Translations under genes and position numbers: made by a program
Part shown: in pieces, positions 9,050 to 32,000 of the stretch
Numbering within the stretch: position 1 is the stretch's first letter
Layout: each line of letters starts with the position of its first letter
From: Candidatus Pelagibacter ubique HTCC1062
GTDB taxonomy: Bacteria; Pseudomonadota; Alphaproteobacteria; Pelagibacterales; Pelagibacteraceae
Direction: 5' to 3'
Assembly (NCBI RefSeq): GCF_000012345.1
Contig: NC_007205.1
Coordinates: forward strand, 30,001-62,000
DNA: 32,000 bases
Notes under the pieces: model-generated
The model's database searches: none
Told to the model about the DNA's origin: nothing
Seen by the model: only the letters and a program-made list of their open reading frames with translations

Positions 9050-9410
9050 GTTTGCTAGACAAACTATAAGCCGGGTTCTGTCATTTAAACCTATCATTTC
9101 TCTAGGCTTAAGATCACTCTTAAGCTCATGCAACTAACCCTGATGACTAGCCAAAGACGGCTTTTAGTTTTGCAACAATGTCATCTCTACTTAGTCTTGC
9201 TCCCAGTGGGGTTTTCCAGCGTTCATTGTTACCAATAGAACCGGTGCGCTCTTACCACACCTTTTCACCCTTGCCATGTTATGGCGGTATATTTTCTGTG
9301 GCACTATCCCTAGGGTTTCCCCCGCCAGGTATTATCTGGCACTGTGTCTTTGCGGAGCCCGGACTTTCCTCTTTAATAAATTAAAGCGATAAGTCGTTCA
9401 TCTAGCAAAT
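9050..9410 (-). ncRNA. rnpB: RNase P RNA, bacterial type A
   Basis: The reverse complement contains the universally conserved blocks GAGGAAAGTCCGGGCTCC, GTGCCAGATAATACCTGGCGGGGGAAACCC, AAGGGTGAAAAGGTGTGGTAAGAGCGCACC and ACAGAACCCGGCTTAT. A P1 helix forms between TTGCTAGA (5' end, about 9409) and TCTAGCAA (3' end, about 9052). The ends are approximate to within about 5 nt. Confidence 0.9.
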
Positions 9411-11673: not shown

Positions 11674-11750
11674 TGGTGGGCCCGCCAGGACTCGAACCTG
11701 GGACCAATACATTATGAGTGTACTGCTCTAACCAACTGAGCTACAGGCCC
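11674..11750 (-). tRNA. tRNA with CAT anticodon (elongator Met, or Ile2 read via lysidine)
   Basis: The reverse complement is GGGCCTG TA GCTC AGTTGGTTA GAGC A GTACA CTCATAA TGTAT TGGTC CCAGG TTCGAGT CCTGG CGGGCCC A CCA. This is a perfect 77-nt cloverleaf with canonical GG in the D loop, TTCGA in the T loop and an encoded CCA. The acceptor pairs C4:G69 and C5:G68 resemble Ile2 rather than Met. Confidence 0.9.
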
Positions 11751-11816: not shown

Positions 11817-11891
11817 TGGTGGGACTGGTTGGTTACGCTCCAACTACCCCTGCAATGTCAATGCAGTACTCTACTATTGAGCTACAGTCCC
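11817..11891 (-). tRNA. tRNA-Val (anticodon GAC) with non-canonical D and T loops
   Basis: The reverse complement is GGGACTG TA GCTC AATAGTA GAGT A CTGCA TTGACAT TGCAG GGGTA GTTGG AGCGTAA CCAAC CAGTCCC A CCA. It is 75 nt with 7/4/5/5-bp stems, all paired (one G:U), and an encoded CCA. The D loop lacks the GG dinucleotide, and the T loop is AGCGTAA instead of TTCRANN. It lies 8 nt downstream of the rpoD stop. Confidence 0.7.
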
Positions 11892-20649: not shown

Positions 20650-22881
20650 TTAAAAGATTTTCTTTAAATTAATCGTTGCTTCATCAAAAGTATTTGGTTT
20701 CAATACATCTTGATTGTTTAATTTAAAATCAATTTCAAAATCATTAATATTTTTACTTATCTTAAATTCAGATCCTAAATTTTCTGAGCCTGCTAATTTA
20801 AAAGCATAATTAGTTTTTCTGTTTGGTAAATATCCTATAGCTAAATGTATTTTATCAGTATGACCGGTGCCTAATGCTTGATTTCTCTCATAGATTAAAA
20901 AGATACTAAAACTATCTGGTAAAATTATATCTATACCTAATTCACCATTTAAATTGTGTAAAGCACCTGAGTTTAACTTGGTATCAAATTCACCACTTGT
21001 TGCATCAGAGACGTAAGAATATTTTATATTAGAAGAACGATTTAAGTTTGCTTTGTATTCTAATTTTCCATGCTTTCTAATTTTATATTTTTCATTTTTT
21101 AATTCATCAACTGCAGCAATTGAAAGTCTTGCATTTCTTGATCGAATGCCTTGCTTTTTAAATTTCATAGCAGTGTTACCACTTTCTTGATAACCATCTA
21201 ATAAAGTGTAACCAAGGTCTATTTGTCCAGAAGGGATTAGAATTAAATTATTTTTCTTAATCTCATCTTTTAATTTAATTGTTCCATATATTTGTCTACC
21301 TTTTCTATCAGCTGTTACACGTTCACCATCAAGCACTGATAAAATATCTGAATTAAGGACACCTACTCCAATAACTGTGTCTATAAATTTTGTATCATCT
21401 TCAATTGGGGATGAGGAATAATGGGTTAAATTATAAGTATTCGTATCTAAATTGCTTCCAGCTGAGCCAACATCAACATCATTTTTACCAAACCTAAAAG
21501 CAAGCCCCCTTATGCCATTATTTTTGGTAAATTTATCTGCTCCAACTGTAATTGCGTTAGTTTTAATCTTTTTAAATGAAGAAACATTTGTCTCTCCAAC
21601 TCTGCCAACTGCAATACTTCCTTCGCTCCAATAAAATACGTCTTGTTGTTTATCTTTTTTCTTTGTAGTAGCTGAGGTTTTTACAACTTTAGTAAGAGAG
21701 GCAAGCATTTGATTGGTAAAATTAAGATCTAAATTAAGATTAGTTAAGTTTTGATTATCTTTGTTTCTTCTAATCCACTTTAATCTATTTAAAGCAGTGT
21801 CCGTTGAGTGTTCTATAGTTCTTGTTGCAACTTCTATTTGTGCAATAGCTATTCCAGTTCTGACACCTGTTGTGATACTCGGACATTTTCCTTCAATAAT
21901 ATTAAAAGGACACACTAAATCAAATTCAAAAACTTCATCCTTTCCGTTTTCATCTTTGTCACTACCAATGTACATTTTAAGACCAACCGCACTAAATGCA
22001 ATTCCTCTTGGTTGAGTAATATCACTAGATATTGAAACTGTACCGTCTATTGTAAATGAAGAAGTGGAAAAAGCCACATCAAGGGAAATTTGAGTTACAT
22101 CTTGTGTACTACCATTGTGATCAACAGCCCAAAATCTTTTTCCATCTGGACTAAATCTTATTCCTTGAGGGTTTGATACTTCATCATTTAGTTCTATTCC
22201 TGCATCTGTAATAATTGATATGGTACTTAGATCGTATGCAGTTGAAAGTTGGTACTCTAATAATCTTGTGTCTTGACCCGTCGCTCCATGAAAAATTGCA
22301 AATAATTTTGTTCCATCATTATTAATCTCAATACCTTGAAGTCTGTTATTAGTTCCCTCAGTAATATCTCCAGCATTACTACCATCTTGTAGAGTACCAG
22401 TATCAAGGTCTGAAGTTTGATTTGCGAATGCACATGTTGAAACATCATAGGGGGAAGTTAAATCAAATCTAAATACTCTATCATCATTTGCAGTACCTTT
22501 AGCATTTCCCCTAGACACAAACAGCATCAATCCATCATTAGAGAATTCTAGATCAGTAATAGCACTAATAGGACCCGAAGTCGTGTCACCACTATTTAAT
22601 ATACATACCTCATCATCACTCGCATAAGTTTTTGTAGAGACATTGAATGGTGTGCTTAAATCATATTCATTTATATGTGCATAAACACTAGAAATTGCTG
22701 AAACTTTTCTTTGGGTCACTGTAAACATTTTTGTTCCATCAGAATTAAAATGGATGCCGTTTATAAAGTCACTCCTATCATTGACTGCTGCTGACTGTAT
22801 TTTGGTAACCATAGCTCCAAATGAATTTGAGATGGGAAGTATAAATAATAAAATTAAAATAAAGTTTTTTATAAATTTCAT
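20650..22881 (-). CDS. Autotransporter-like outer-membrane protein, paralog 1 (propeller-blade repeats plus C-terminal beta-barrel)
   Basis: 743 aa with signal peptide MKFIKNFILILLFILPISNSFGA. Five repeats of about 50-70 aa (aa about 38-333) have the core [FI].[FI].[NSP]DG.K[ML][FY] ... [EF][YF].L[ST][TS].[YF][DN].S (HFNSDGTKMF, FSNDGLMLF, INNDGTKLF, FSPDGKRFW, FSAVGLKMY). A Cys loop C324-x8-C333 and a helical linker (ALNRLKWIRRNKD) follow. From WSEGSIAVGRVGE onward there are about 325 aa of alternating hydrophobic pattern ending ...INLKKIF (C-terminal Phe). Confidence 0.8.
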   Translation of the reverse strand: MKFIKNFILILLFILPISNSFGAMVTKIQSAAVNDRSDFINGIHFNSDGTKMFTVTQRKVSAISSVYAHINEYDLSTPFNVSTKTYASDDEVCILNSGDTTSGPISAITDLEFSNDGLMLFVSRGNAKGTANDDRVFRFDLTSPYDVSTCAFANQTSDLDTGTLQDGSNAGDITEGTNNRLQGIEINNDGTKLFAIFHGATGQDTRLLEYQLSTAYDLSTISIITDAGIELNDEVSNPQGIRFSPDGKRFWAVDHNGSTQDVTQISLDVAFSTSSFTIDGTVSISSDITQPRGIAFSAVGLKMYIGSDKDENGKDEVFEFDLVCPFNIIEGKCPSITTGVRTGIAIAQIEVATRTIEHSTDTALNRLKWIRRNKDNQNLTNLNLDLNFTNQMLASLTKVVKTSATTKKKDKQQDVFYWSEGSIAVGRVGETNVSSFKKIKTNAITVGADKFTKNNGIRGLAFRFGKNDVDVGSAGSNLDTNTYNLTHYSSSPIEDDTKFIDTVIGVGVLNSDILSVLDGERVTADRKGRQIYGTIKLKDEIKKNNLILIPSGQIDLGYTLLDGYQESGNTAMKFKKQGIRSRNARLSIAAVDELKNEKYKIRKHGKLEYKANLNRSSNIKYSYVSDATSGEFDTKLNSGALHNLNGELGIDIILPDSFSIFLIYERNQALGTGHTDKIHLAIGYLPNRKTNYAFKLAGSENLGSEFKISKNINDFEIDFKLNNQDVLKPNTFDEATINLKKIF

Positions 22882-22885
22882 AAGA

Positions 22886-23026
22886 TTAAAATGTTGTTGA
22901 CAATTTAATACTCAGGTCTTTAAATTGTTTATTTACCACTTCAACTATTCCAGCTTGTGCTTGCATCAAAATAAAAAATGATGACACAAGTGAACCGACA
23001 GCTAATTTTCTTAAAAAAAATACCAT
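22886..23026 (-). CDS. Candidate 46-aa secreted mini-protein immediately upstream of paralog 1 (below the ORF-track size cutoff)
   Basis: Hand translation of the minus strand gives MVFFLRKLAVGSLVSSFFILMQAQA/GIVEVVNKQFKDLSIKLSTTF*. That is a positive n-region, a hydrophobic core and an AQA cleavage-type motif, leaving a 21-aa mature peptide ending in Phe. The stop lies 4 nt before the paralog-1 ATG. No Shine-Dalgarno is visible. It may be a relic or a chance ORF. Confidence 0.3.
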   Translation of the reverse strand: MVFFLRKLAVGSLVSSFFILMQAQAGIVEVVNKQFKDLSIKLSTTF

Positions 23027-23176
23027 AATGAAAAATACTATATAAAATTTAATTTAGCGGTTTTTCAGCTCTTTTAAGTGCTCAAAACGGGCAGAAATTC
23101 TAATATTGAGTGCGTTTTATCGAGGATAAAATAATCTTCATCAAAAATTCAAATATATAAATTTTAATAAATCAAG

Positions 23177-25348
23177 ATGCTTAATTTAATAAAAAAAAGT
23201 AAAAAATTAATTATAAAAGGTGCTCTTAAACTAAAAGTATTTTTAGTTTTATTTAGTTTATTTTTTTCATCACTAGCTTTAGCTGAACCTACATTTATTG
23301 CTAATTTTAATGTCCAAGACAAAGAAACTTCACCTACTGGGATAACATTTAATCCTGATGGTACCAAAATGTTTATTACAGGAATAAATATGCGAAAAAT
23401 ACTACAATATAATTTAACTACAGCTTTTGATGTTACTTCAGCAGCTTTTGAAAAGTCTGTGTTAATCCAAGTAGAACAGGATAAACCACAAGATGTAAAA
23501 TTTAATTCAGATGGAACTGTAATTTTTCTTTTAGGAACGGGAACTGGAGTAATAGATGGAGTGGATGCTGCTAGAAATGGGATTCATAGATGGTCTTTAA
23601 GTACACCATATGATATTGGATCGATCACTCCAGCAAATACCACTTTTACTGAAGTTGGTGGTGATAACCCAAGAGGATTAGCTTTTAATAATGATGGAAC
23701 AAAAATGTTTATTTTGGATAATACTGCTCAGCGGGTAGAAGAATACAATCTTTCAACACCATATAACCCTGATACTAAAGGTTCTGTAGCCAACACACTT
23801 GGTAATGCAAGGAGTGCTAGTCATCAGGGACTAGGTTTTAATAATGATGGATCAAAAATATTTATAGTAAAACAAGACAATAAAATTGATGAATATGCTT
23901 TATCTACTGCTTTCGATCTATCAAGCGCAACATTAACTGGTACAGTCTCACCGACATTTCCAGTTACAAATAAAAGGTTAAGTGGCTTTGCTTTCAATAG
24001 TTCTGGAACAAAAATGTATCACTTAGATTGGCATACACTTACTGATGCTGACAATGTAAATGAGTATAGCTTAAGCTGTCCTTTTGCAGTTGTTAGTTCA
24101 TCAACGTGTGGAGCCCCACAAAAAAATAAAGATGTAAGGGGTGTAGTTGATGCACAAATTAATACTGCTAAAAATTTTGCTAAAGATTCAAGTCAGTCTG
24201 CTTTAAAAAGATTATCTATTTTAAGAGCGAATAAATACTACAACGCAAGTGCACAAAATATAGAGTTAAACTTTCAAAATGAATTATTAAAGAAAGTATC
24301 CAATAATGTTTTAAGTTCCGCACAAGCTAAATTAAACCCACTTCAAAAATTAGATCAAATTTTACCTAATGATTGGGAGGTATGGTCCGAAGGTAGCATT
24401 AGTTTTGGAAAAATTGGTGAGAGCTCCTTAAGTTCTGCTCAAGATATTGATAGCCTTGGTATAACTGTGGGTGTTGATACAAAAATGGATGATGATAAAA
24501 TATTAGGAGTTGCTTTAAGAGTGGGTAGCACTGATGTTGATGTTGGAACCTTTGGTTCTAAAGTTGATACAAATGCATTAAGTTTATCTCTTTATGGAAT
24601 TAACAGTTTAGAAAACAGTAATTATTTAAAACACGTTTTTGGAGTTAGTTATTTAGATAGCAATATTGCAAGAAAATATGACGGAAATACCGACGCAAAT
24701 AAGGGTGAACGTGAGGGTAAACAGGTTTTTGGTTCACTTAATTTTGGAAAAGAATATGAAAATAGTGATTTAATTATTACTCCAACAGGTCGTATCGATG
24801 GAAGTTATACAGCACTTAATGGTTATACAGAAAGTGGCATTGCAGCACTTAGTTATAATGATCAAGACATCAGTTCATTAATGGCTTCTTTAGGAGTATT
24901 AATAGACCAAGATGTTGATCTAGAAAATTCAACTGTAAGATCTAGAATTAATCTTGAATACAGTAAAGAGTTTGCCTCAAGCTCTAAGGTGGTAACAAGC
25001 TACGTATCAAACAGTGAAAGTTTTGAATATCAAGCTGATAACAAAAATAGAGATATATACACAGCAGGACTTGGTTTAGATTTTAAGCATGACCAAGGGT
25101 TAATAATTAGTACTGATTACGAAAGACAGCAAATCAAGGGTCATGGTTATATTAATAAATTTACATTATCAGCAGGCTTTTTATATAGAAAAGAAACAGA
25201 GTTTGCACTTGGTCTTGATGAAGAAATGACTTCGAGCTTTAAAATTTCTAAAGCACTAGGTGTATTTGATTTAGAATTTGATTTAGAAAATAATTTTTCA
25301 AATCAAGAAAATCATAATGCTAACTTATCTATATTAAGTAAATTTTAA
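23177..25348 (+). CDS. Autotransporter-like outer-membrane protein, paralog 2
   Basis: 723 aa with an extended signal peptide ending FSLFFSSLALA/EP. The five repeats are FNPDGTKMFI...QYNLTTAFDVTS, FNSDGTVIFL...RWSLSTPYDIGS, FNNDGTKMFI...EYNLSTPYNPDT, FNNDGSKIFI...EYALSTAFDLSS and FNSSGTKMYH...EYSLSCPF. A Cys loop C301-x9-C311, a linker (ALKRLSILRANK) and a barrel from WEVWSEGSISFGKIGE follow, ending ...LSILSKF. Confidence 0.8.
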   Translation: MLNLIKKSKKLIIKGALKLKVFLVLFSLFFSSLALAEPTFIANFNVQDKETSPTGITFNPDGTKMFITGINMRKILQYNLTTAFDVTSAAFEKSVLIQVEQDKPQDVKFNSDGTVIFLLGTGTGVIDGVDAARNGIHRWSLSTPYDIGSITPANTTFTEVGGDNPRGLAFNNDGTKMFILDNTAQRVEEYNLSTPYNPDTKGSVANTLGNARSASHQGLGFNNDGSKIFIVKQDNKIDEYALSTAFDLSSATLTGTVSPTFPVTNKRLSGFAFNSSGTKMYHLDWHTLTDADNVNEYSLSCPFAVVSSSTCGAPQKNKDVRGVVDAQINTAKNFAKDSSQSALKRLSILRANKYYNASAQNIELNFQNELLKKVSNNVLSSAQAKLNPLQKLDQILPNDWEVWSEGSISFGKIGESSLSSAQDIDSLGITVGVDTKMDDDKILGVALRVGSTDVDVGTFGSKVDTNALSLSLYGINSLENSNYLKHVFGVSYLDSNIARKYDGNTDANKGEREGKQVFGSLNFGKEYENSDLIITPTGRIDGSYTALNGYTESGIAALSYNDQDISSLMASLGVLIDQDVDLENSTVRSRINLEYSKEFASSSKVVTSYVSNSESFEYQADNKNRDIYTAGLGLDFKHDQGLIISTDYERQQIKGHGYINKFTLSAGFLYRKETEFALGLDEEMTSSFKISKALGVFDLEFDLENNFSNQENHNANLSILSKF

Positions 25349-25692
25349 TGAGTAAAATAAAAATAGTTTTCTATTTAGCTTTAGCTTTTATTTTTTATAA
25401 AGGCTTTGTTGCATTTCAAAATTTTGAAATTGGTGTTGATGACAGGGTTGCATCTATAGAAGAAAAAGCAGATTTTGAAAAAGAAGGTGAAGTAATTGGT
25501 CTCATGATGTACTTGGGCGACCCACCAGAATTATATGAACATTTATTAACTAAGAATAAATCTAGGTGTTTAGAAATGAGACAAACAGCAGAAGAGAGCT
25601 CCTCTGCATACTATGAATGCGCAAGAGTGAACGCCGTCCTTAAAGGTGGAAAAATTGTAAGTATTATTAATGAAATTGAAGTTATAGAATAA
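25348..25692 (+). CDS. Hypothetical 114-aa membrane-anchored/secreted protein, translationally coupled to paralog 2
   Basis: Its ATG shares the A of the paralog-2 TAA (TAATG at 25346-25350). It has an N-terminal hydrophobic helix (IVFYLALAFIFYKGFVAF), then a charged soluble domain with two Cys (C74, C91). I recognise no family motif. Confidence 0.6.
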   Translation: MSKIKIVFYLALAFIFYKGFVAFQNFEIGVDDRVASIEEKADFEKEGEVIGLMMYLGDPPELYEHLLTKNKSRCLEMRQTAEESSSAYYECARVNAVLKGGKIVSIINEIEVIE

Positions 25693-25700
25693 TTATTAAA

Positions 25701-27875
25701 TTAAAATTTATTTGAAATTTCTATATTTGCACCATAGTCAGGTACATCACTTATAAAATTATAATTAGAGCTCATCTTTAAATCAAATCCATTTATGTTA
25801 TTTGTATATGAGAAACTAGTATTTTCAAAATTATTCAGATCAAATACAAATTTCATTTCATCAATTGGCACATACCCTACAGATAAATAAATTTCATTAC
25901 TATGACCTTTGCCGTTAGATTGAAATCTCTCAAAATTTCCAACGAATGACCATCCTGTTATGGAAGTGACATCAAAACCATAACCAATTCTAAGATTATG
26001 CTTTGATTTATTTTCTACATTATAATTGTAAACTGTACTTTGACTATTAAGATAATAAAATTCTGCATCTGATGATGGGCTTAGATCTGCAATATATTCT
26101 AATCGACCATGGTGATTAATAATTTCATCTTCTTCTTTATCTGTATCTGTTTTATCTAAAAGGACACCAAGTGTTATTAATGCTGATTTAATATTTTGCT
26201 CTTTATAAAGTAGTGCATCAGCTAAACTATCTCCAACAACAGTTCTTTCTCTAAATGCTTTTAGTTTTGTGTACCCTAAATCTAATTTAATACCTGGATT
26301 GAGATTTAAATCTTCATCAACTATTCTTTTTCCAAAATTAAATGATCCATATATCTGTTGACCTTCTCGGTTTCCCTCTAAAATGTTACCATAAATAACC
26401 CTTTTTTGATCTATATCTAGTAAACTAACTCCAATTAATGCATCTGTAAAAACGTGATCATCTCTAAGTTTGGTATCATATAGGGCAAAACTATATGCAT
26501 CTGTCTCTAATTTTGTTCCACTACTTCCAATATCAACATTATCGTTTGCATACTGAAAGACGTATCCATGCATAGCATCTCTGTCATCATCTTTAATTTT
26601 ATCTGCACCAACTGAGATACCATAGCTGTGAAAATCTCTTGATGATGAATTTATAGATTTATTTTTACCTAAGCTAATTCTACCTTCACTCCATTTAAAC
26701 CAATCCTCACTATCATAACTTCTATCATTTTCTTTTTTAGAATTTTTAAGAGCACTAACTAATTTTGATATTTTTTCATTTGTAAAATCAATTTCTGCAT
26801 TAAGATTTGATAAATTATCTTTATTTTTATGTCTTCTTAACCACTCAATTCGATGAAAGATTGGAAGAGTATTGTTTTTAATTATACGTTTTGATAATTC
26901 GACATTTGCTTCAATGATTGCTTTAACATCATTATTATTTGAGGCATCAATACAAGTAATGGTACCAGCGCAAGCTAAACTATATTCAAAAATTTTATTT
27001 GTTGAAGCAGTAGAGCCAGCATCATTAGTAACAAACAACTTCGTAAAATTTGCTGTGAAAATAAAGCCTCTCATATGACTAACTCTGCTACCTAGCTCGT
27101 ATTCAGTAGAAGTAGAAGAAATAGTTGTGATATCCCAAGGTGTACTTAGAGTGTATTTATGTATATTATTATTACCATCACCTGCGACATACAAAATTGA
27201 CCCATCCGAATGCAATTGAATATTTCTCATTCCTCCGTCAGAAGAGCTGGCTAGACTGGCTGATAAAGAACCCACTGAAACTCCAGATCGAAGATCAAAA
27301 GGAGTTGTTAATATATATTCTCTTATTTTATCTTGAGTTTTTCCACCCACAAACATACGTGTTCCGTCAGGTTTAAATGTTAAAGTTCTTACTTGATCTT
27401 CATTGCCAACACCCGTTATGTCTACTTCAAATATTTTCTCACAATCCAATGTAGAAGTATCCCAAGCAGTTGTTAATTTAAATTGATAGACTGCAACTCC
27501 AGGATTTCCAGAGTGATCTTTGTTGGTAGTTATAAACATTCTTGTTCCATCAGGTTTAAATTCAATAGCGTGTGGTAACTGCATATCTGTACTACATGTT
27601 AATTTTGTTCCAGCTCCATCAACAAATGTTCTTGTTGCTGTACTTATATCGAATGGAGTGCTGAGCGAATATTGAACTATGTAGGCATCATGATTTGCAA
27701 CACGATTTGTTATATACATTATGCTTCCGTCTGGTTTAAAGTTTATTCCTCTAACACCAGGTACATCTGTGGATAGTATTTTTTCTTTTTGAAATTCTAA
27801 AAAAGCAAAAGCATTAGAATAAAATAATGCTAAAAAGCTAAATACAAAAAATGATGTTTTGAGAATTTTTTTCAC
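25701..27875 (-). CDS. Autotransporter-like outer-membrane protein, paralog 3
   Basis: 724 aa with a GTG start and signal peptide MKKILKTSFFVFSFLALFYSNAFA. The repeats are FKPDGSIMYI...QYSLSTPFDIST, FKPDGTRMFI...QFKLTTAWDTST, FKPDGTRMFV...EYILTTPFDLRS, LHSDGSILYV...KYTLSTPWDITT and FTANFTKLFV...EYSLAC. A Cys loop C302-x5-C308, a linker (IFHRIEWLRRHKNKDN) and a barrel from WFKWSEGRISLGK follow, ending ...IEISNKF. Confidence 0.8.
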   Translation of the reverse strand: MKKILKTSFFVFSFLALFYSNAFAFLEFQKEKILSTDVPGVRGINFKPDGSIMYITNRVANHDAYIVQYSLSTPFDISTATRTFVDGAGTKLTCSTDMQLPHAIEFKPDGTRMFITTNKDHSGNPGVAVYQFKLTTAWDTSTLDCEKIFEVDITGVGNEDQVRTLTFKPDGTRMFVGGKTQDKIREYILTTPFDLRSGVSVGSLSASLASSSDGGMRNIQLHSDGSILYVAGDGNNNIHKYTLSTPWDITTISSTSTEYELGSRVSHMRGFIFTANFTKLFVTNDAGSTASTNKIFEYSLACAGTITCIDASNNNDVKAIIEANVELSKRIIKNNTLPIFHRIEWLRRHKNKDNLSNLNAEIDFTNEKISKLVSALKNSKKENDRSYDSEDWFKWSEGRISLGKNKSINSSSRDFHSYGISVGADKIKDDDRDAMHGYVFQYANDNVDIGSSGTKLETDAYSFALYDTKLRDDHVFTDALIGVSLLDIDQKRVIYGNILEGNREGQQIYGSFNFGKRIVDEDLNLNPGIKLDLGYTKLKAFRERTVVGDSLADALLYKEQNIKSALITLGVLLDKTDTDKEEDEIINHHGRLEYIADLSPSSDAEFYYLNSQSTVYNYNVENKSKHNLRIGYGFDVTSITGWSFVGNFERFQSNGKGHSNEIYLSVGYVPIDEMKFVFDLNNFENTSFSYTNNINGFDLKMSSNYNFISDVPDYGANIEISNKF

Positions 27876-27978: not shown

Positions 27979-28005
27979 GTTGACAACTGATCAAAATGGG
28001 TGGAA
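27979..28005 (+). promoter_or_regulatory. 27-nt conserved promoter/operator-like element, copy A (upstream of the regulator gene)
   Basis: The sequence is GTTGACAACTGATCAAAATGGGTGGAA. It starts with a consensus -35 hexamer TTGACA. It is 26/27 identical to the inverted copy at 29873-29899. It ends 30 nt before the in-frame ATG at 28036. Confidence 0.5.
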
Positions 28006-29004
28006 AAAACAACTTGTAAGACTTTAATAGAAATCATGATTAAAATTACAAATAAAACTAATGAAGAACAAATCTTCAAAATTATTAATGAAAATTTTAG
28101 TCAGTTAGCACCCTCATATTATTCGTTGGTAACTCATTGGTTTATTAATGCTTATAAAAATTTTAAAGGTATCGATAAGTATATAATTTTAATTTATCTG
28201 ATTAATAAAGACTTTATTCACTATAGAAAAAATGGACTAATGGTTGATTATGATACGTTTTATAAGGATAAAACACTAGAAATTCCAAATATTAATATTT
28301 CAGATATTGCAAGAGACCTTCTTATACCTAAGGAAAATGTAAGAAGAAAAATATCTGAATTAGAGAAAAAAGGTATTATTAAAAGAGCAGGAAAAAAGAT
28401 CTTTGTTGAAAGACCTGGCTTTATACAAACAAAAGCTAATATAACTTTAAAAGATTTTAGTAGTTTGGTTTCTACGTTTAGTGAAATTTTAAAAGATAAA
28501 AAAATAATTAAAGAACCTTTAAACACAGATCAAATTTCAAATTTAATTAAAGAAAATTTTTCTTTTTGTTGGTATCAATTTTACAAATTTTTATTCATAT
28601 TTTCTAACCGTTGGAAAACAGATACTAAAACTCAGGATTTAGAAACAATATGTGTGGGATTAATTGTAATGATTAATACTGTTCAAAATAGGGGTTTCAA
28701 AGACAAGAATTTAGATAGACAAAAATATTTTAAAGCAGTTCAAAAATCTAATCACATTGGTATTAACGCATTTTCTATAGCTGATATTACGGGAATTCCA
28801 AGGGCTACCGTTGTAAGAAAATTACAATTTTTAATCGAAAACAAATTTTTAAATATTAGTGAAAAAAAACTTTATAACTTTGCTATGGGGACACAAACTA
28901 AACAATTTAAAGTGCTCACTAAATTACAAGATAAAAATATGAAAGCTTTAGGTAAATTTTTGTATAAGGTTTTTAATCAGATTAAAATAATAAACACTAA
29001 TTAG
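28000..29004 (+). CDS. Putative transcriptional regulator with two tandem winged-helix-turn-helix domains (internal duplication)
   Basis: 334 aa from the GTG at 28000, or 322 aa from the ATG at 28036, which I think more likely because the conserved element overlaps the GTG. HTH1 is NINISDIARDLLIPKENVRRKISELEKKGIIKRAGKKIFV (nt about 28291-28407). HTH2 is GINAFSIADITGIPRATVVRKLQFLIENKFLNISEKKLYNF (nt about 28765-28881). The two align with each other at about 12/39 identity plus conservative changes, each preceded by a hydrophobic helical region. Confidence 0.65.
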   Translation: MEKTTCKTLIEIMIKITNKTNEEQIFKIINENFSQLAPSYYSLVTHWFINAYKNFKGIDKYIILIYLINKDFIHYRKNGLMVDYDTFYKDKTLEIPNINISDIARDLLIPKENVRRKISELEKKGIIKRAGKKIFVERPGFIQTKANITLKDFSSLVSTFSEILKDKKIIKEPLNTDQISNLIKENFSFCWYQFYKFLFIFSNRWKTDTKTQDLETICVGLIVMINTVQNRGFKDKNLDRQKYFKAVQKSNHIGINAFSIADITGIPRATVVRKLQFLIENKFLNISEKKLYNFAMGTQTKQFKVLTKLQDKNMKALGKFLYKVFNQIKIINTN

Positions 29005-30068: not shown

Positions 30069-32000
30069 CTATCCAATTGATATTAAAGTAAGATCATCAC
30101 TTAATTTTCCAGATTTAGAGCTGTCAATTATTTTTTTACTAATATCTGATAAGTGTTTCTTCGAATCTTTTGTGTAGTTATCTTCAATTATTTCAATTGA
30201 ACCTTCAATACCTATTTCTTGTCCTTCAGCATTTAAACTTTCAGACAATCCATCTGTAAAAACATAAAATTTGTTTCCATTTAAAACTTGTTTATTAATT
30301 TTATAAATTGATTTATTTTTTTGGTGAATAACCCCCATCGGCGGCGCTTCACTATCAAAATTTTGGTATTTACCATTTTTGTCTCTAATGATAGCTGGTT
30401 GATGTCCCGCATTTACCCATGAAACTTCTTTGGTAATTAAATCATATTTTCCAAGAACACATGTCACAAACATGCCTGATGTTTTGGTGAGAAATAAATC
30501 GTTATTCATATGAAGCATCATTTCATCTGGATCTACCTGATCTCTTGACATGACTTCAAATAAAGTAGAGGCTTTTGCCATCACCATTCCAGCATGAACT
30601 CCCTTACCTGCTACATCTGCAATTATAAAATTAATACTATCATTATGGGGATAAAAACTAAAAAAATCACCTGAAACTTCTCTCGAAGCAATATTAATTC
30701 CTTGCACAGGATAATTTTGTAAATCTCTTTTTGGTAAAAAATTTTCTTGAACTTTTACAGCCAAATTTATTTCTTTGGAAATTCTACTTCGCCACTTTTC
30801 TTTTTCATTTTCGCTAACCTCAAGCTTGTTCATCAATTTATTATAATAAAGTCCTATTACCCCTCCTGCAGTGAAAGGATCTTGTGGGCCTCTAACAGAG
30901 AGATCTCCACTTTCAGACTGTTTTTCAAGGATTGAAATTAAATCATGTTCTACTGAAACTGCATTATGTTCAGCAATATTTAATCCTAATTCCTCTTGTA
31001 AAGGAGTTACTCTTAATGGATAAAAATAATTTAAAATTTTTAAAATAATATAAGATCCAAAAAATGCGAAAGCACCAATTGCTAATATTCCTATAACCTG
31101 GACTTCAATTTGCTCTAACCTTGTAAGTCCTGTTCCTAATTTTTCTAAATCACTGAACAAACCAACTGAAATAGTTCCCCATACACCTGCTCCTAAATGA
31201 ACTGGCACTGCACCTACGACATCATCTATCTCATATTTGTTTAACAGTTCATTTATAAAAATTGCTACGATTGCACCAATAATACCAACAAAAATTGCCG
31301 TAACTGATGTCATTGAATTACAACCAGCTGTTATAGCAACCAATCCTGCAAGAGGACCTAATATTACATAAAATGGATCTGGTTTTTTAAATAATAAAAA
31401 TGAAATACCTAGTCCAGTTAACAACCCAAAAGCAGCAGAAAGAAATGTATTTATCAATATTAATGGCACTGTTTCATCCATTGCTCCATTACTTCCGCCA
31501 TTAAAACCAAACCAACCAAACCATAAAATTAAGGTTCCTAAAACGGCTAACGGAAAACTAGAGCCAGTAAATTTACCTTTATTAGACTCAGAATATTTAC
31601 CAATTCTTGGCCCTAAAATTAATACAGCAGCAAGTGCAATCCATCCTCCAACAGAATGAACAATAGTGCTACCAGCAAAATCAACAAAACCAAGTTCTGT
31701 TAACCATCCAGTATTTTTAATTTCTCCCGTAACAGCCGATAACTGCATTACAGTATCATTCATATTATTTAGATAACTGGATGACCAAGCCCAATGACCA
31801 ACAATTGGATAAATTATGCCAGTTGCAATTATCGTTATTATTAAATATCCATTAAATTTCATTCTTTCAGCCACAGCTCCAGAAACTATTGTTGCAGCAG
31901 TTGCAACAAACATGGCTTGGAACACAAAATATGTCATGTAATCAGCTTTTTCGGTTTTAAAGAAAAAAAGATCTGTTCCAAAAAAACCATTATAACTTGT
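30069..32000 (-). CDS. amt: Ammonium transporter (Amt/MEP) fused to a C-terminal SpoIIE/RsbU-type PP2C serine phosphatase domain (5' end runs off the window)
   Basis: The reading frame stays open upstream of the track ATG (31937) to the window end (TSYNGFFGTDLFFFKTEKADY-MTYF...), so the N-terminus is outside the window. Amt motifs are AATIVSGAVAERMKF, DFAGSTIVHSVGGW, WFGWFGFNGGS, GAVPVHLGAGVWGT and EELGLNIAEH (Amt part is nt about 30965-32000). After a linker of about 60 aa come the PP2C/SpoIIE motifs SGDFFSF, ADVAGKGVHAGMVMA, NAGHQP, FTDGLSE and SDDLTLISI (nt 30069 to about 30785). Confidence 0.9.
   Translation of the reverse strand, partial: TSYNGFFGTDLFFFKTEKADYMTYFVFQAMFVATAATIVSGAVAERMKFNGYLIITIIATGIIYPIVGHWAWSSSYLNNMNDTVMQLSAVTGEIKNTGWLTELGFVDFAGSTIVHSVGGWIALAAVLILGPRIGKYSESNKGKFTGSSFPLAVLGTLILWFGWFGFNGGSNGAMDETVPLILINTFLSAAFGLLTGLGISFLLFKKPDPFYVILGPLAGLVAITAGCNSMTSVTAIFVGIIGAIVAIFINELLNKYEIDDVVGAVPVHLGAGVWGTISVGLFSDLEKLGTGLTRLEQIEVQVIGILAIGAFAFFGSYIILKILNYFYPLRVTPLQEELGLNIAEHNAVSVEHDLISILEKQSESGDLSVRGPQDPFTAGGVIGLYYNKLMNKLEVSENEKEKWRSRISKEINLAVKVQENFLPKRDLQNYPVQGINIASREVSGDFFSFYPHNDSINFIIADVAGKGVHAGMVMAKASTLFEVMSRDQVDPDEMMLHMNNDLFLTKTSGMFVTCVLGKYDLITKEVSWVNAGHQPAIIRDKNGKYQNFDSEAPPMGVIHQKNKSIYKINKQVLNGNKFYVFTDGLSESLNAEGQEIGIEGSIEIIEDNYTKDSKKHLSDISKKIIDSSKSGKLSDDLTLISIG

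Follow-up and report, generated by a model that had tools for sequence, protein, structure and literature searches.

Three SAR11 autotransporters with a predicted five-bladed propeller passenger and cassette-like polymorphism

What would the three neighbouring autotransporter genes SAR11_0042, SAR11_0044 and SAR11_0046 of Candidatus Pelagibacter ubique HTCC1062 present on the cell surface, and how is the variety of this cargo maintained? The genes lie in a 32,000-nucleotide (nt) stretch of the genome (contig NC_007205.1, positions 30,001 to 62,000), here called the window, and together occupy 20.6% of it. Coordinates below are positions in the window, and amino acid (aa) numbers are given per protein. 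An initial annotation of the window had placed three open reading frames (ORFs) here, and their coordinates and strands were confirmed exactly:

20650..22881, minus strand: paralogue A, SAR11_0042; ORF of 743 aa (AAZ20867.1/Q4FPQ3, WP_041185763.1), PF03797 with E 5.5e-25.
23177..25348, plus strand: paralogue B, SAR11_0044; ORF of 723 aa (AAZ20869.1/Q4FPQ1), PF03797 with E 2.5e-44.
25701..27875, minus strand: paralogue C, SAR11_0046; ORF of 724 aa with a GTG start, PF03797 with E 3.2e-29.

The older HTCC1062 annotation of SAR11_0046 has 672 aa and misses the signal peptide. All three proteins bear only the name 'autotransporter', a label in use since 2005. Their genes are the first ones of the hypervariable region HVR1 of SAR11 (Wilhelm et al. 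2007, PMC2217521), where they were already remarked on as 'tandem, divergent Type V'. The initial description of an 'otherwise streamlined housekeeping region' has to be corrected accordingly, as the region to the right of carB is the published HVR1. The autotransporter annotation and the HVR1 location are thus already known. In the searched literature we found no characterised function or name for the family, and no description of the five-bladed fold as a passenger, of its kinship with phage tail-fibre modules, or of modular replacement in SAR11. Our reading of the locus is that the three proteins are probably type Va autotransporters that use a five-bladed propeller as a non-catalytic binding module, kept diverse by cassette recombination.

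All three proteins share one layout, with a signal peptide, five blades of ~50 aa, a Cys loop, a helical linker and a PF03797 (Autotransporter beta-domain) barrel with terminal Phe. This agreement goes far beyond chance. The signal peptides, recognized from sequence reading alone, consist of a basic n-region, a hydrophobic core and a cleavage site with small residues. PF03797 was detected in A, B and C with 89, 152 and 103 bits, respectively, against a cutoff of 26, and NCBIfam profiles added nothing further on the three proteins. In Foldseek searches, the C-terminal part of B matched AaaA (9oqa), EspP (8bnz/3slo/7ye6) and EstA (3kvn) with probability 1.0, and the target-normalised template modelling (TM) scores of the B barrel to EspP barrels were 0.63-0.69.

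Calls of invariant residues are based on an alignment of 35 sequences from the three paralogue groups. Invariant were the DG of each blade, the Cys loop (C301/C311), R345/R350/K353/N356/N361 in the helical segment, W403-S404-E405-G406 at the barrel start and F723 at the end. These include the motifs initially singled out by eye (blade DG, Cys loop, basic residues of the helix, WSEG and terminal Phe). Because PF03797 is found in all three proteins, the barrel matches EspP, EstA and AaaA, and WSEG and the terminal Phe are invariant, the scaffold of SAR11_0042/0044/0046 is that of a classical (type Va) monomeric autotransporter, as had been claimed for the C-terminal third. All three proteins have the features of this type that can be checked (PF03797, signal peptide, terminal aromatic residue). 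By analogy with the type Va family, they would be exported by the Sec pathway via the signal peptide, after which the C-terminal 12-stranded barrel would be inserted in the outer membrane. The conserved helical linker would run through the barrel and leave the ~280-aa passenger displayed on the cell surface.

The paralogues are old. In full-length BLASTP comparisons they are 32%, 29% and 30% identical (E 2e-95 to 2e-78). By domain, identities are 33-36% for the barrels, in agreement with an earlier estimate of about one third, and 24-34% for the passengers. The domain boundaries and the evidence for them are as follows:

21901..22812, minus strand: A passenger, aa 24-327; five blade units with long insertions, Phytase-like match over ~2 blades (E 7e-9).
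20653..21639, minus strand: A barrel translocator, aa 415-743, with terminal Phe; PF03797 at aa 418-664, aligned with the B and C barrels.
23285..24112, plus strand: B passenger, aa 37-312; 20 strands predicted with good confidence, tblastn matches to phage ICBM2.
24113..24373, plus strand: B Cys loop and helical linker, aa 313-399; helix predicted at aa 318-354.
24374..25345, plus strand: B barrel, aa 400-723; PF03797 at aa 402-649, Foldseek matches to AaaA, EspP and EstA.
26958..27803, minus strand: C passenger, aa 25-306; modelled on its own, Foldseek matches to predicted phage proteins.
25704..26699, minus strand: C barrel, aa 393-724; PF03797 at aa 395-648.

Besides the invariant C-terminal Cys loop, A and C (but not B) have a second Cys pair in the passenger, with the two residues ~58 aa apart. 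As a disulfide, such a long loop would be unusual in a type V passenger.

The passenger is confidently predicted to fold as one compact beta-propeller of five blades, formed by a ~50-aa repeat with the signature P.GI.F..DGTKMF ... Y.LSTPFDIST. A hidden Markov model (HMM) of a single blade, derived from the unrelated tandem-repeat protein P0361, recognized five units, no more and no fewer, in every paralogue (whole-protein E 3e-15 to 1e-35), of which the fifth is the most degenerate. AlphaFold2 (AF2) was run on full-length B with the 35-sequence alignment, and on the C passenger alone. In the first model, aa 40-310 of B form 20 strands arranged as 5 x 4, with a predicted local distance difference test score (pLDDT) of ~80-92. 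In the second, the C passenger again has 20 strands, with a pLDDT of 86.6 and a predicted TM score (pTM) of 0.88. The initial reading of the N-terminal part as five propeller-blade repeats, and not as a beta-helix, is thus supported by HMM and model alike.

Likewise, a resemblance of the repeat to SGL, lactonase and YVTN-type blades was recovered by several methods. Foldseek comparison of the C passenger with the PDB returned only generic 6-7-bladed propellers with TM <= 0.55, and a PDB sequence search gave 1L0Q as the sole, weak match (E 1.5e-5). Pfam matches to the passengers were partial and mostly near threshold: Phytase-like in A, Lactonase in C and SGL in all three. The gathering score was exceeded only in A (Phytase-like, 36.4 bits versus 27.6) and C (Lactonase, 23.0 bits versus 21.7). 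A full-length match to the 6-7-bladed families PF10282, PF08450 and PF13449 was not found, as the matches span one or two blades. This outcome agrees with the initial expectation of a lactonase-type N-terminal profile or none. PHROGs gave no match to the passengers.

Could the propellers be surface enzymes of lactonase, phytase or esterase type, which free phosphate or carbon from dissolved organic matter? The above-cutoff matches in A and C, the SGL matches in all three proteins, the JGI label '6-phosphogluconolactonase' on some orthologues and the transporters that are also present in HVR1 (Pfam scan; PMC2217521) would fit such a role. Nevertheless, we regard it as improbable. An enzymatic role is less likely because across the three paralogue groups not a single polar residue is invariant outside the repeated structural motif, which contains all invariant passenger residues, because the Pfam enzyme matches cover just one or two blades of 6-7-blade models whereas the domain has five, and because the domain serves as a building block in many copies, up to dozens in giant proteins, and also forms phage tail-module proteins (see below), a distribution that fits binding better. 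In addition, TM does not exceed 0.55 for any solved lactonase or SGL enzyme. Position and analogy point instead to ligand binding without catalysis, the ligand probably being a glycan or another surface polymer.

If the passenger is a binding module, how much does it vary among SAR11 populations? Mean pairwise identities within the orthologue groups of the three paralogues were as follows:

Paralogue group A: passenger 62.4%, linker 93.0%, barrel 91.0%.
Paralogue group B: passenger 82.7%, linker 98.6%, barrel 94.7%.
Paralogue group C: passenger 72.8%, linker 95.8%, barrel 95.9%.

A hypervariable passenger on a conserved linker and barrel supports the early suggestion of diversifying surface proteins, with surface display itself drawn from analogy. 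The variable columns are concentrated in two loops of every blade, the B-C hairpin (between 'KMFI' and 'I.QY.L') and the D-A loop (the strand after 'STPFDIST' up to the next 'P.GI.F'), and the motifs are conserved. In the standard propeller topology, B-C and D-A loops share one face. By analogy, both variable loops would lie on one face of the SAR11 propeller and act as its specificity surface, with the conserved motifs building the scaffold.

For 53 metagenomic relatives of C (at least 60% identical overall), nonsynonymous (dN) and synonymous (dS) divergence was estimated by the Nei-Gojobori method. The passenger had a dN of 0.40, a dS of 1.11 and a dN/dS of 0.35, and the barrel a dN of 0.07, a dS of 0.37 and a dN/dS of 0.18. 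The higher dS implies that the passenger is older at synonymous sites too, and not merely less constrained.

Further evidence comes from alleles of C, most of which were compared as short-read metagenome contigs. Some allele pairs have barrels that are 98-100% identical and passengers that are just 47-50% identical. Three metagenomic alleles were compared with C at the nucleotide level. Identity was 90-100% (mostly >=95%) from -299 to +60, dropped to 35-82% from +61 to ~+900, and then returned to 95-100% through the rest of the gene, with sharp edges on both sides. In the two contigs that reach beyond the C gene, high identity continues past the stop codon. The divergent block coincides exactly with the propeller:

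26976..27815, minus strand: hypervariable cassette of C, gene nt +61 to +900, from the nucleotide identity profile at 60-nt resolution.

The 18 sequences with barrels at least 95% identical to that of C carry four discrete passenger types, which are 45-67% identical to each other. One alternative type was found on 11 independent contigs from different samples, always with the same edges. This cassette is 84% identical to passengers from single-cell genomes whose barrels are only 61-64% identical to the C barrel. Because divergent passengers occur on near-identical barrels, and cassette types are shared across distant barrels, the histories of passenger and barrel are, judged by these alignments, discordant. 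Gene conversion from A or B was considered as a source of the alternative C cassettes and rejected, since these are only 26-30% identical to them.

Mis-assembly is a concern for such data, as passengers and barrels of different strains or paralogues could have been joined wrongly across the conserved linker. Most alleles come from short-read metagenome contigs, and the conservation of linker and barrel suffices for assembly graphs to collapse. We nevertheless think it highly improbable that the pattern has arisen in this way. The same alternative cassette with the same edges would have to be explained on all 11 contigs, and, with identity also high upstream of the cassette (-299 to +60), both junctions would need identical chimerism each time. 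Single-cell genomes show the discordance as well, and so does the complete genome Uisw_137, with identities of 82% in the barrel, 86% in the linker and 48% in the passenger. Moreover, a mis-join itself requires that the true linkers are near-identical over a k-mer.

The propeller of C thus shows cassette-like polymorphism in natural SAR11 populations. Homologous recombination via the conserved flanks is the simplest mechanism of exchange. The exchanged unit would be a discrete ~840-bp cassette that holds the propeller. The conserved promoter and signal peptide border it at one end, and Cys loop, linker and barrel at the other. In this way, old and discrete classes of alleles would circulate on near-identical backbones. 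Such a pattern is what selection dependent on frequency or niche would be expected to produce in a surface-exposed protein.

Where else does the propeller repeat occur? A profile of the three passengers was searched against 1.84 billion protein representatives. It matched 14,745 cluster representatives at E <= 1e-3, and 4,223 of these at E <= 1e-30. The top matches come from giant proteins, the largest 6,246 aa long, in which as many as 38 stretches match. Among the smaller matches, P0359 and P0361 are almost perfect tandem repeats of one ~50-aa unit, 'P.GL.F..DGTKMY..G...D.VYQY.LSTAFDVSTASY...SFSV..QE'. No dedicated Pfam model exists for the repeat, which gives a weak SGL or Lactonase match to one blade only. 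Giant proteins of the repeat without a barrel are present in Saccharibacteria, Nitrosopumilus and Alphaproteobacteria single-cell genomes, and a smaller one of 795 aa in a Cyclobacteriaceae genome. Examples of the giants, with dozens of blades, are P0259 (6,246 aa), L074 from Nitrosopumilus (4,185 aa) and L062/L065/L078 from Saccharibacteria (2,930-3,697 aa); the C-terminal end of P0259 resembles a type IX secretion sorting domain.

A search for the barrel found none among the 150 best representatives and none across 80 viral loci. Among the cellular sequences examined, the fusion of propeller and barrel was found only in Pelagibacteraceae and in unclassified Alphaproteobacteria single-cell genomes. 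Loci of this kind hold 1-4 autotransporter copies, occasionally in two- and three-propeller versions. In the SAR11 single-cell genomes L024 (4695-8381, 1,229 aa) and L034 (6448-9723, 1,092 aa), three and two propeller-profile matches, respectively, precede a barrel of the same type. Judged by these profile matches, the passenger can be multimerised.

Relatives of the whole domain also occur in viruses. Foldseek comparison of the C model with BFVD, with predicted models on both sides, identified nine phage proteins that match over the whole domain (TM 0.74-0.82, root-mean-square deviation 2.6-4.2 A, 21-29% identity). The best match is gp51 of Lentibacter phage vB_LenP_ICBM2 (A0A3G2YRG7, TM 0.81). 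In tblastn searches, the B passenger matched ICBM2 (32% identity, E 3e-28) and Roseobacter phage CRP-9 (E 1e-29) with 95% coverage; further matches were to Synechococcus and Maribacter phages. ICBM2 gp51 is encoded between 'tail assembly chaperone' genes, and the variable module at this position has been assigned to tail fibres (Cobavirus paper, PMC6775973).

In IMG/VR, at least 580 viral stretches matched. In the 80 viral loci, the ORFs are 290-1,556 aa long and typically have a short N-terminal part followed by repeats. Their neighbours are baseplate wedge and baseplate genes, a tape-measure gene two genes before, or nearby tail-fibre genes, and some of the ORFs contain a C-terminal motif common to tail-fibre PHROGs (weak matches). 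The whole propeller domain is homologous to these phage tail-module proteins. Among the 80 loci, just one viral carrier has a low GC content, the IMG/VR contig L083 (13-3697, 33% GC). It has four consecutive plus-strand ORFs, the first two of which carry the propeller repeat and end with a ~40-aa tail-fibre PHROG motif, and the fourth of which also has a tail-fibre PHROG match; no close relative of the contig was found within the phage collection.

The kinship raises the question of phage-host conflict. The autotransporters could be pelagiphage receptors, or shields and decoys that use a phage-type receptor-binding domain to mask a surface receptor. Cassette diversity would then result from negative frequency-dependent selection by phages. 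This explanation overlaps with the binding-module reading and differs in the selective agent and in the role of the protein. Several observations fit it: the genes sit in a hypervariable region, the allelic classes are discrete and old with sharp recombination edges, loci have 1 to 4 copies, and the passengers are homologous to phage tail-module proteins. In addition, each SAR11 passenger scores 115-157 bits against more than 100 viral ORFs, but only 65-99 bits against the paralogues of its own genome. The higher viral scores are no proof of transfer and may reflect fast divergence from a consensus-like ancestor.

Set against these observations, tblastn detected the propeller domain in none of the pelagiphages in the isolate phage collection, and the viral carriers mostly have a GC content of 40-56%, much above that of SAR11. 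Ligand or niche specialisation, or grazing pressure, could give an equal pattern. To our knowledge, no pelagiphage receptor has been identified. On balance, it seems rather unlikely that the cassettes are the host side of an arms race between receptor and receptor-binding protein, be it as pelagiphage receptors or as anti-phage shields that mask the cell's own surface glycans. If they were, cassette swapping under negative frequency-dependent selection would keep ancient allele classes across SAR11 lineages.

Together, the above observations favour a type Va autotransporter with a five-bladed propeller as a non-catalytic binding module. Its variable face would determine specificity, and frequency-dependent selection (by phages or grazers) or niche-dependent selection would maintain its diversity. 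Several points weigh against this view. The two observations on viral carriers just mentioned, GC content and absence from isolated pelagiphages, count here as well, and the tail-fibre role of the phage homologues is suggested by gene position and weak PHROG matches. Gene-wide positive selection is unsupported, since the dN/dS of the passenger among the 53 relatives is below 1. Closure of the ring with five blades is suggested by the pTM of the C model and by predicted viral structures. In the AF2 model of B, the linker helix (aa 318-354) has low to moderate confidence, and the barrel has a pLDDT of 55-80 with ~11 clear strands, falling below 50 for the last ~60 residues. Oxidation of the second Cys pair of A and C in the periplasm, should it occur, could interfere with type V translocation. 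Finally, the searched full texts contain no functional work on the locus tags SAR11_0042/0044/0046 and do not address the passenger.

Upstream of the autotransporter genes are carA and carB, and two small ORFs lie within the cluster. Downstream follow a winged-helix regulator, transcribed divergently, then genes for an SBF symporter and an Amt-SpoIIE fusion. The smaller ORFs and neighbours with a possible connection are:

25348..25692, plus strand: SAR11_0045, 114 aa; N-terminal hydrophobic segment and two Cys, with an ATG that overlaps the stop codon of B (TAATG).
22886..23026, minus strand: putative ORF of 46 aa with a hydrophobic N-terminus, from the ORF list; ends 4 nt before the start of A.
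28000..29004, plus strand: SAR11_0047, winged-helix regulator of 334 aa with helix-turn-helix (HTH) Pfam matches; divergent from C.
30069..31937, minus strand: ammonium transporter (PF00909) fused to a C-terminal SpoIIE/PP2C phosphatase (PF07228), from Pfam.

SAR11_0045 is far more conserved than its hypervariable neighbours. The identical sequence recurs on 193 contigs, and the cluster formed at 90% counts 672 members. In 4 other loci it adjoins autotransporters. It has no Pfam or NCBIfam match, and may be a partner of the autotransporters in the periplasm. The 46-aa ORF is probably SAR11_0043, as a hypothetical gene between SAR11_0042 and 0044 is listed in the literature (PMC2704228, PMC2217521). 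Homologues of SAR11_0047 were found in 13 related loci (28-74% identity), usually beside an SBF symporter and a few kb from the autotransporter, which makes it a candidate regulator of the cluster. A homologue of the Amt-SpoIIE fusion is present on the autotransporter locus in 6 of 80 related genome loci (51-81% identity, second copies 32%).

A check of synteny, between carB and amt, had been suggested for the family. Because carB was not found within 10 kb of the autotransporters at any of 80 genome loci, only HTCC1062-like genomes have the placement 'between carB and amt'. Coastal SAR11 have a large 'autotransporter adhesin' (PMC12636525), which was also considered and is a different gene of 5-9.5 kb that adjoins pilus genes. 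An Rfam scan detected no RNA family within 20650-27875, and a promoter and terminator scan was uninformative, with 23 promoter-like sites versus 41 expected by chance. Elsewhere in the window, RNase P RNA (class A, 9051-9405, minus strand) and two tRNA genes (11677-11750 and 11820-11891, both minus strand) are ordinary and unrelated.

SAR11 is the most abundant heterotrophic bacterial group of the surface ocean (PMC12636525), and HVR1 was described in 2007. With the present data, three bare 'autotransporter' labels in this region become a concrete candidate with discrete swappable alleles and defined recombination edges. The exchanged part would be a binding domain displayed on the surface, of a type that phage tail fibres also have. 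During C-to-N translocation, the folding of a closed beta-propeller passenger would need to be very unlike that of the usual beta-helix. The ~50-aa repeat, present in ~15,000 protein clusters without a dedicated Pfam family, merits a model of its own.

How unusual is this cargo among known systems? Propellers of YVTN, lactonase, SGL or YncE type (1L0Q, 4QRJ, 3VGZ; PF10282, PF08450) are similar at the level of the blade, in sequence and in three dimensions. These are 6-7-bladed, however, with TM <= 0.55 and partial, near-threshold Pfam matches, and the SAR11 proteins do not correspond over the full length to the 6-7-bladed lactonase, SGL or phytase enzymes.

Among autotransporters, EstA (3KVN) and AaaA (9OQA) of Pseudomonas aeruginosa gave the best structural matches to the C-terminal part. 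Each combines, in one polypeptide, a signal peptide, a compact passenger of globular shape and a linker with a PF03797 barrel of 12 strands, a layout that is predicted for the SAR11 proteins too. EstA carries a GDSL esterase as passenger and AaaA an aminopeptidase, whereas the SAR11 passenger is a predicted five-bladed propeller for which the 35-sequence alignment shows no conserved catalytic constellation. For XatA of Xylella fastidiosa, an AT-1 autotransporter, a propeller passenger has been predicted too, from sequence alone, with a repeat of a different family (LGxL) that is unlike the SAR11 blades (PMC3426408). XatA is reported to be important for virulence of this plant pathogen, and a phage link is not mentioned (PMC3426408). 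The initial claim that a propeller is unusual as a passenger therefore stands, with the qualification that XatA is a predicted precedent and that globular passengers have been solved for EstA and AaaA.

Among phage proteins, the receptor-binding protein (RBP) Gp45 of Staphylococcus phage phi11 also has a five-bladed propeller, the cavity of which is proposed to bind N-acetylglucosamine (GlcNAc) of wall teichoic acid (PMC4901313). It is a trimeric multidomain RBP for a Gram-positive host, outside the top 50 Foldseek PDB matches and without detectable relationship to the SAR11 passenger, and can serve as a functional analogue for glycan recognition. ICBM2 gp51 and CRP-9 gp42 are, in contrast, true relatives, in which the whole five-blade domain is homologous to the SAR11 passenger and has the same blade motifs. 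In such phage tail-module proteins, the function of which is putative, a short N-terminal part for virion attachment takes the place of the SAR11 signal peptide, the barrel is lacking (0 of 80 viral loci), and more blades or several propellers are often found.

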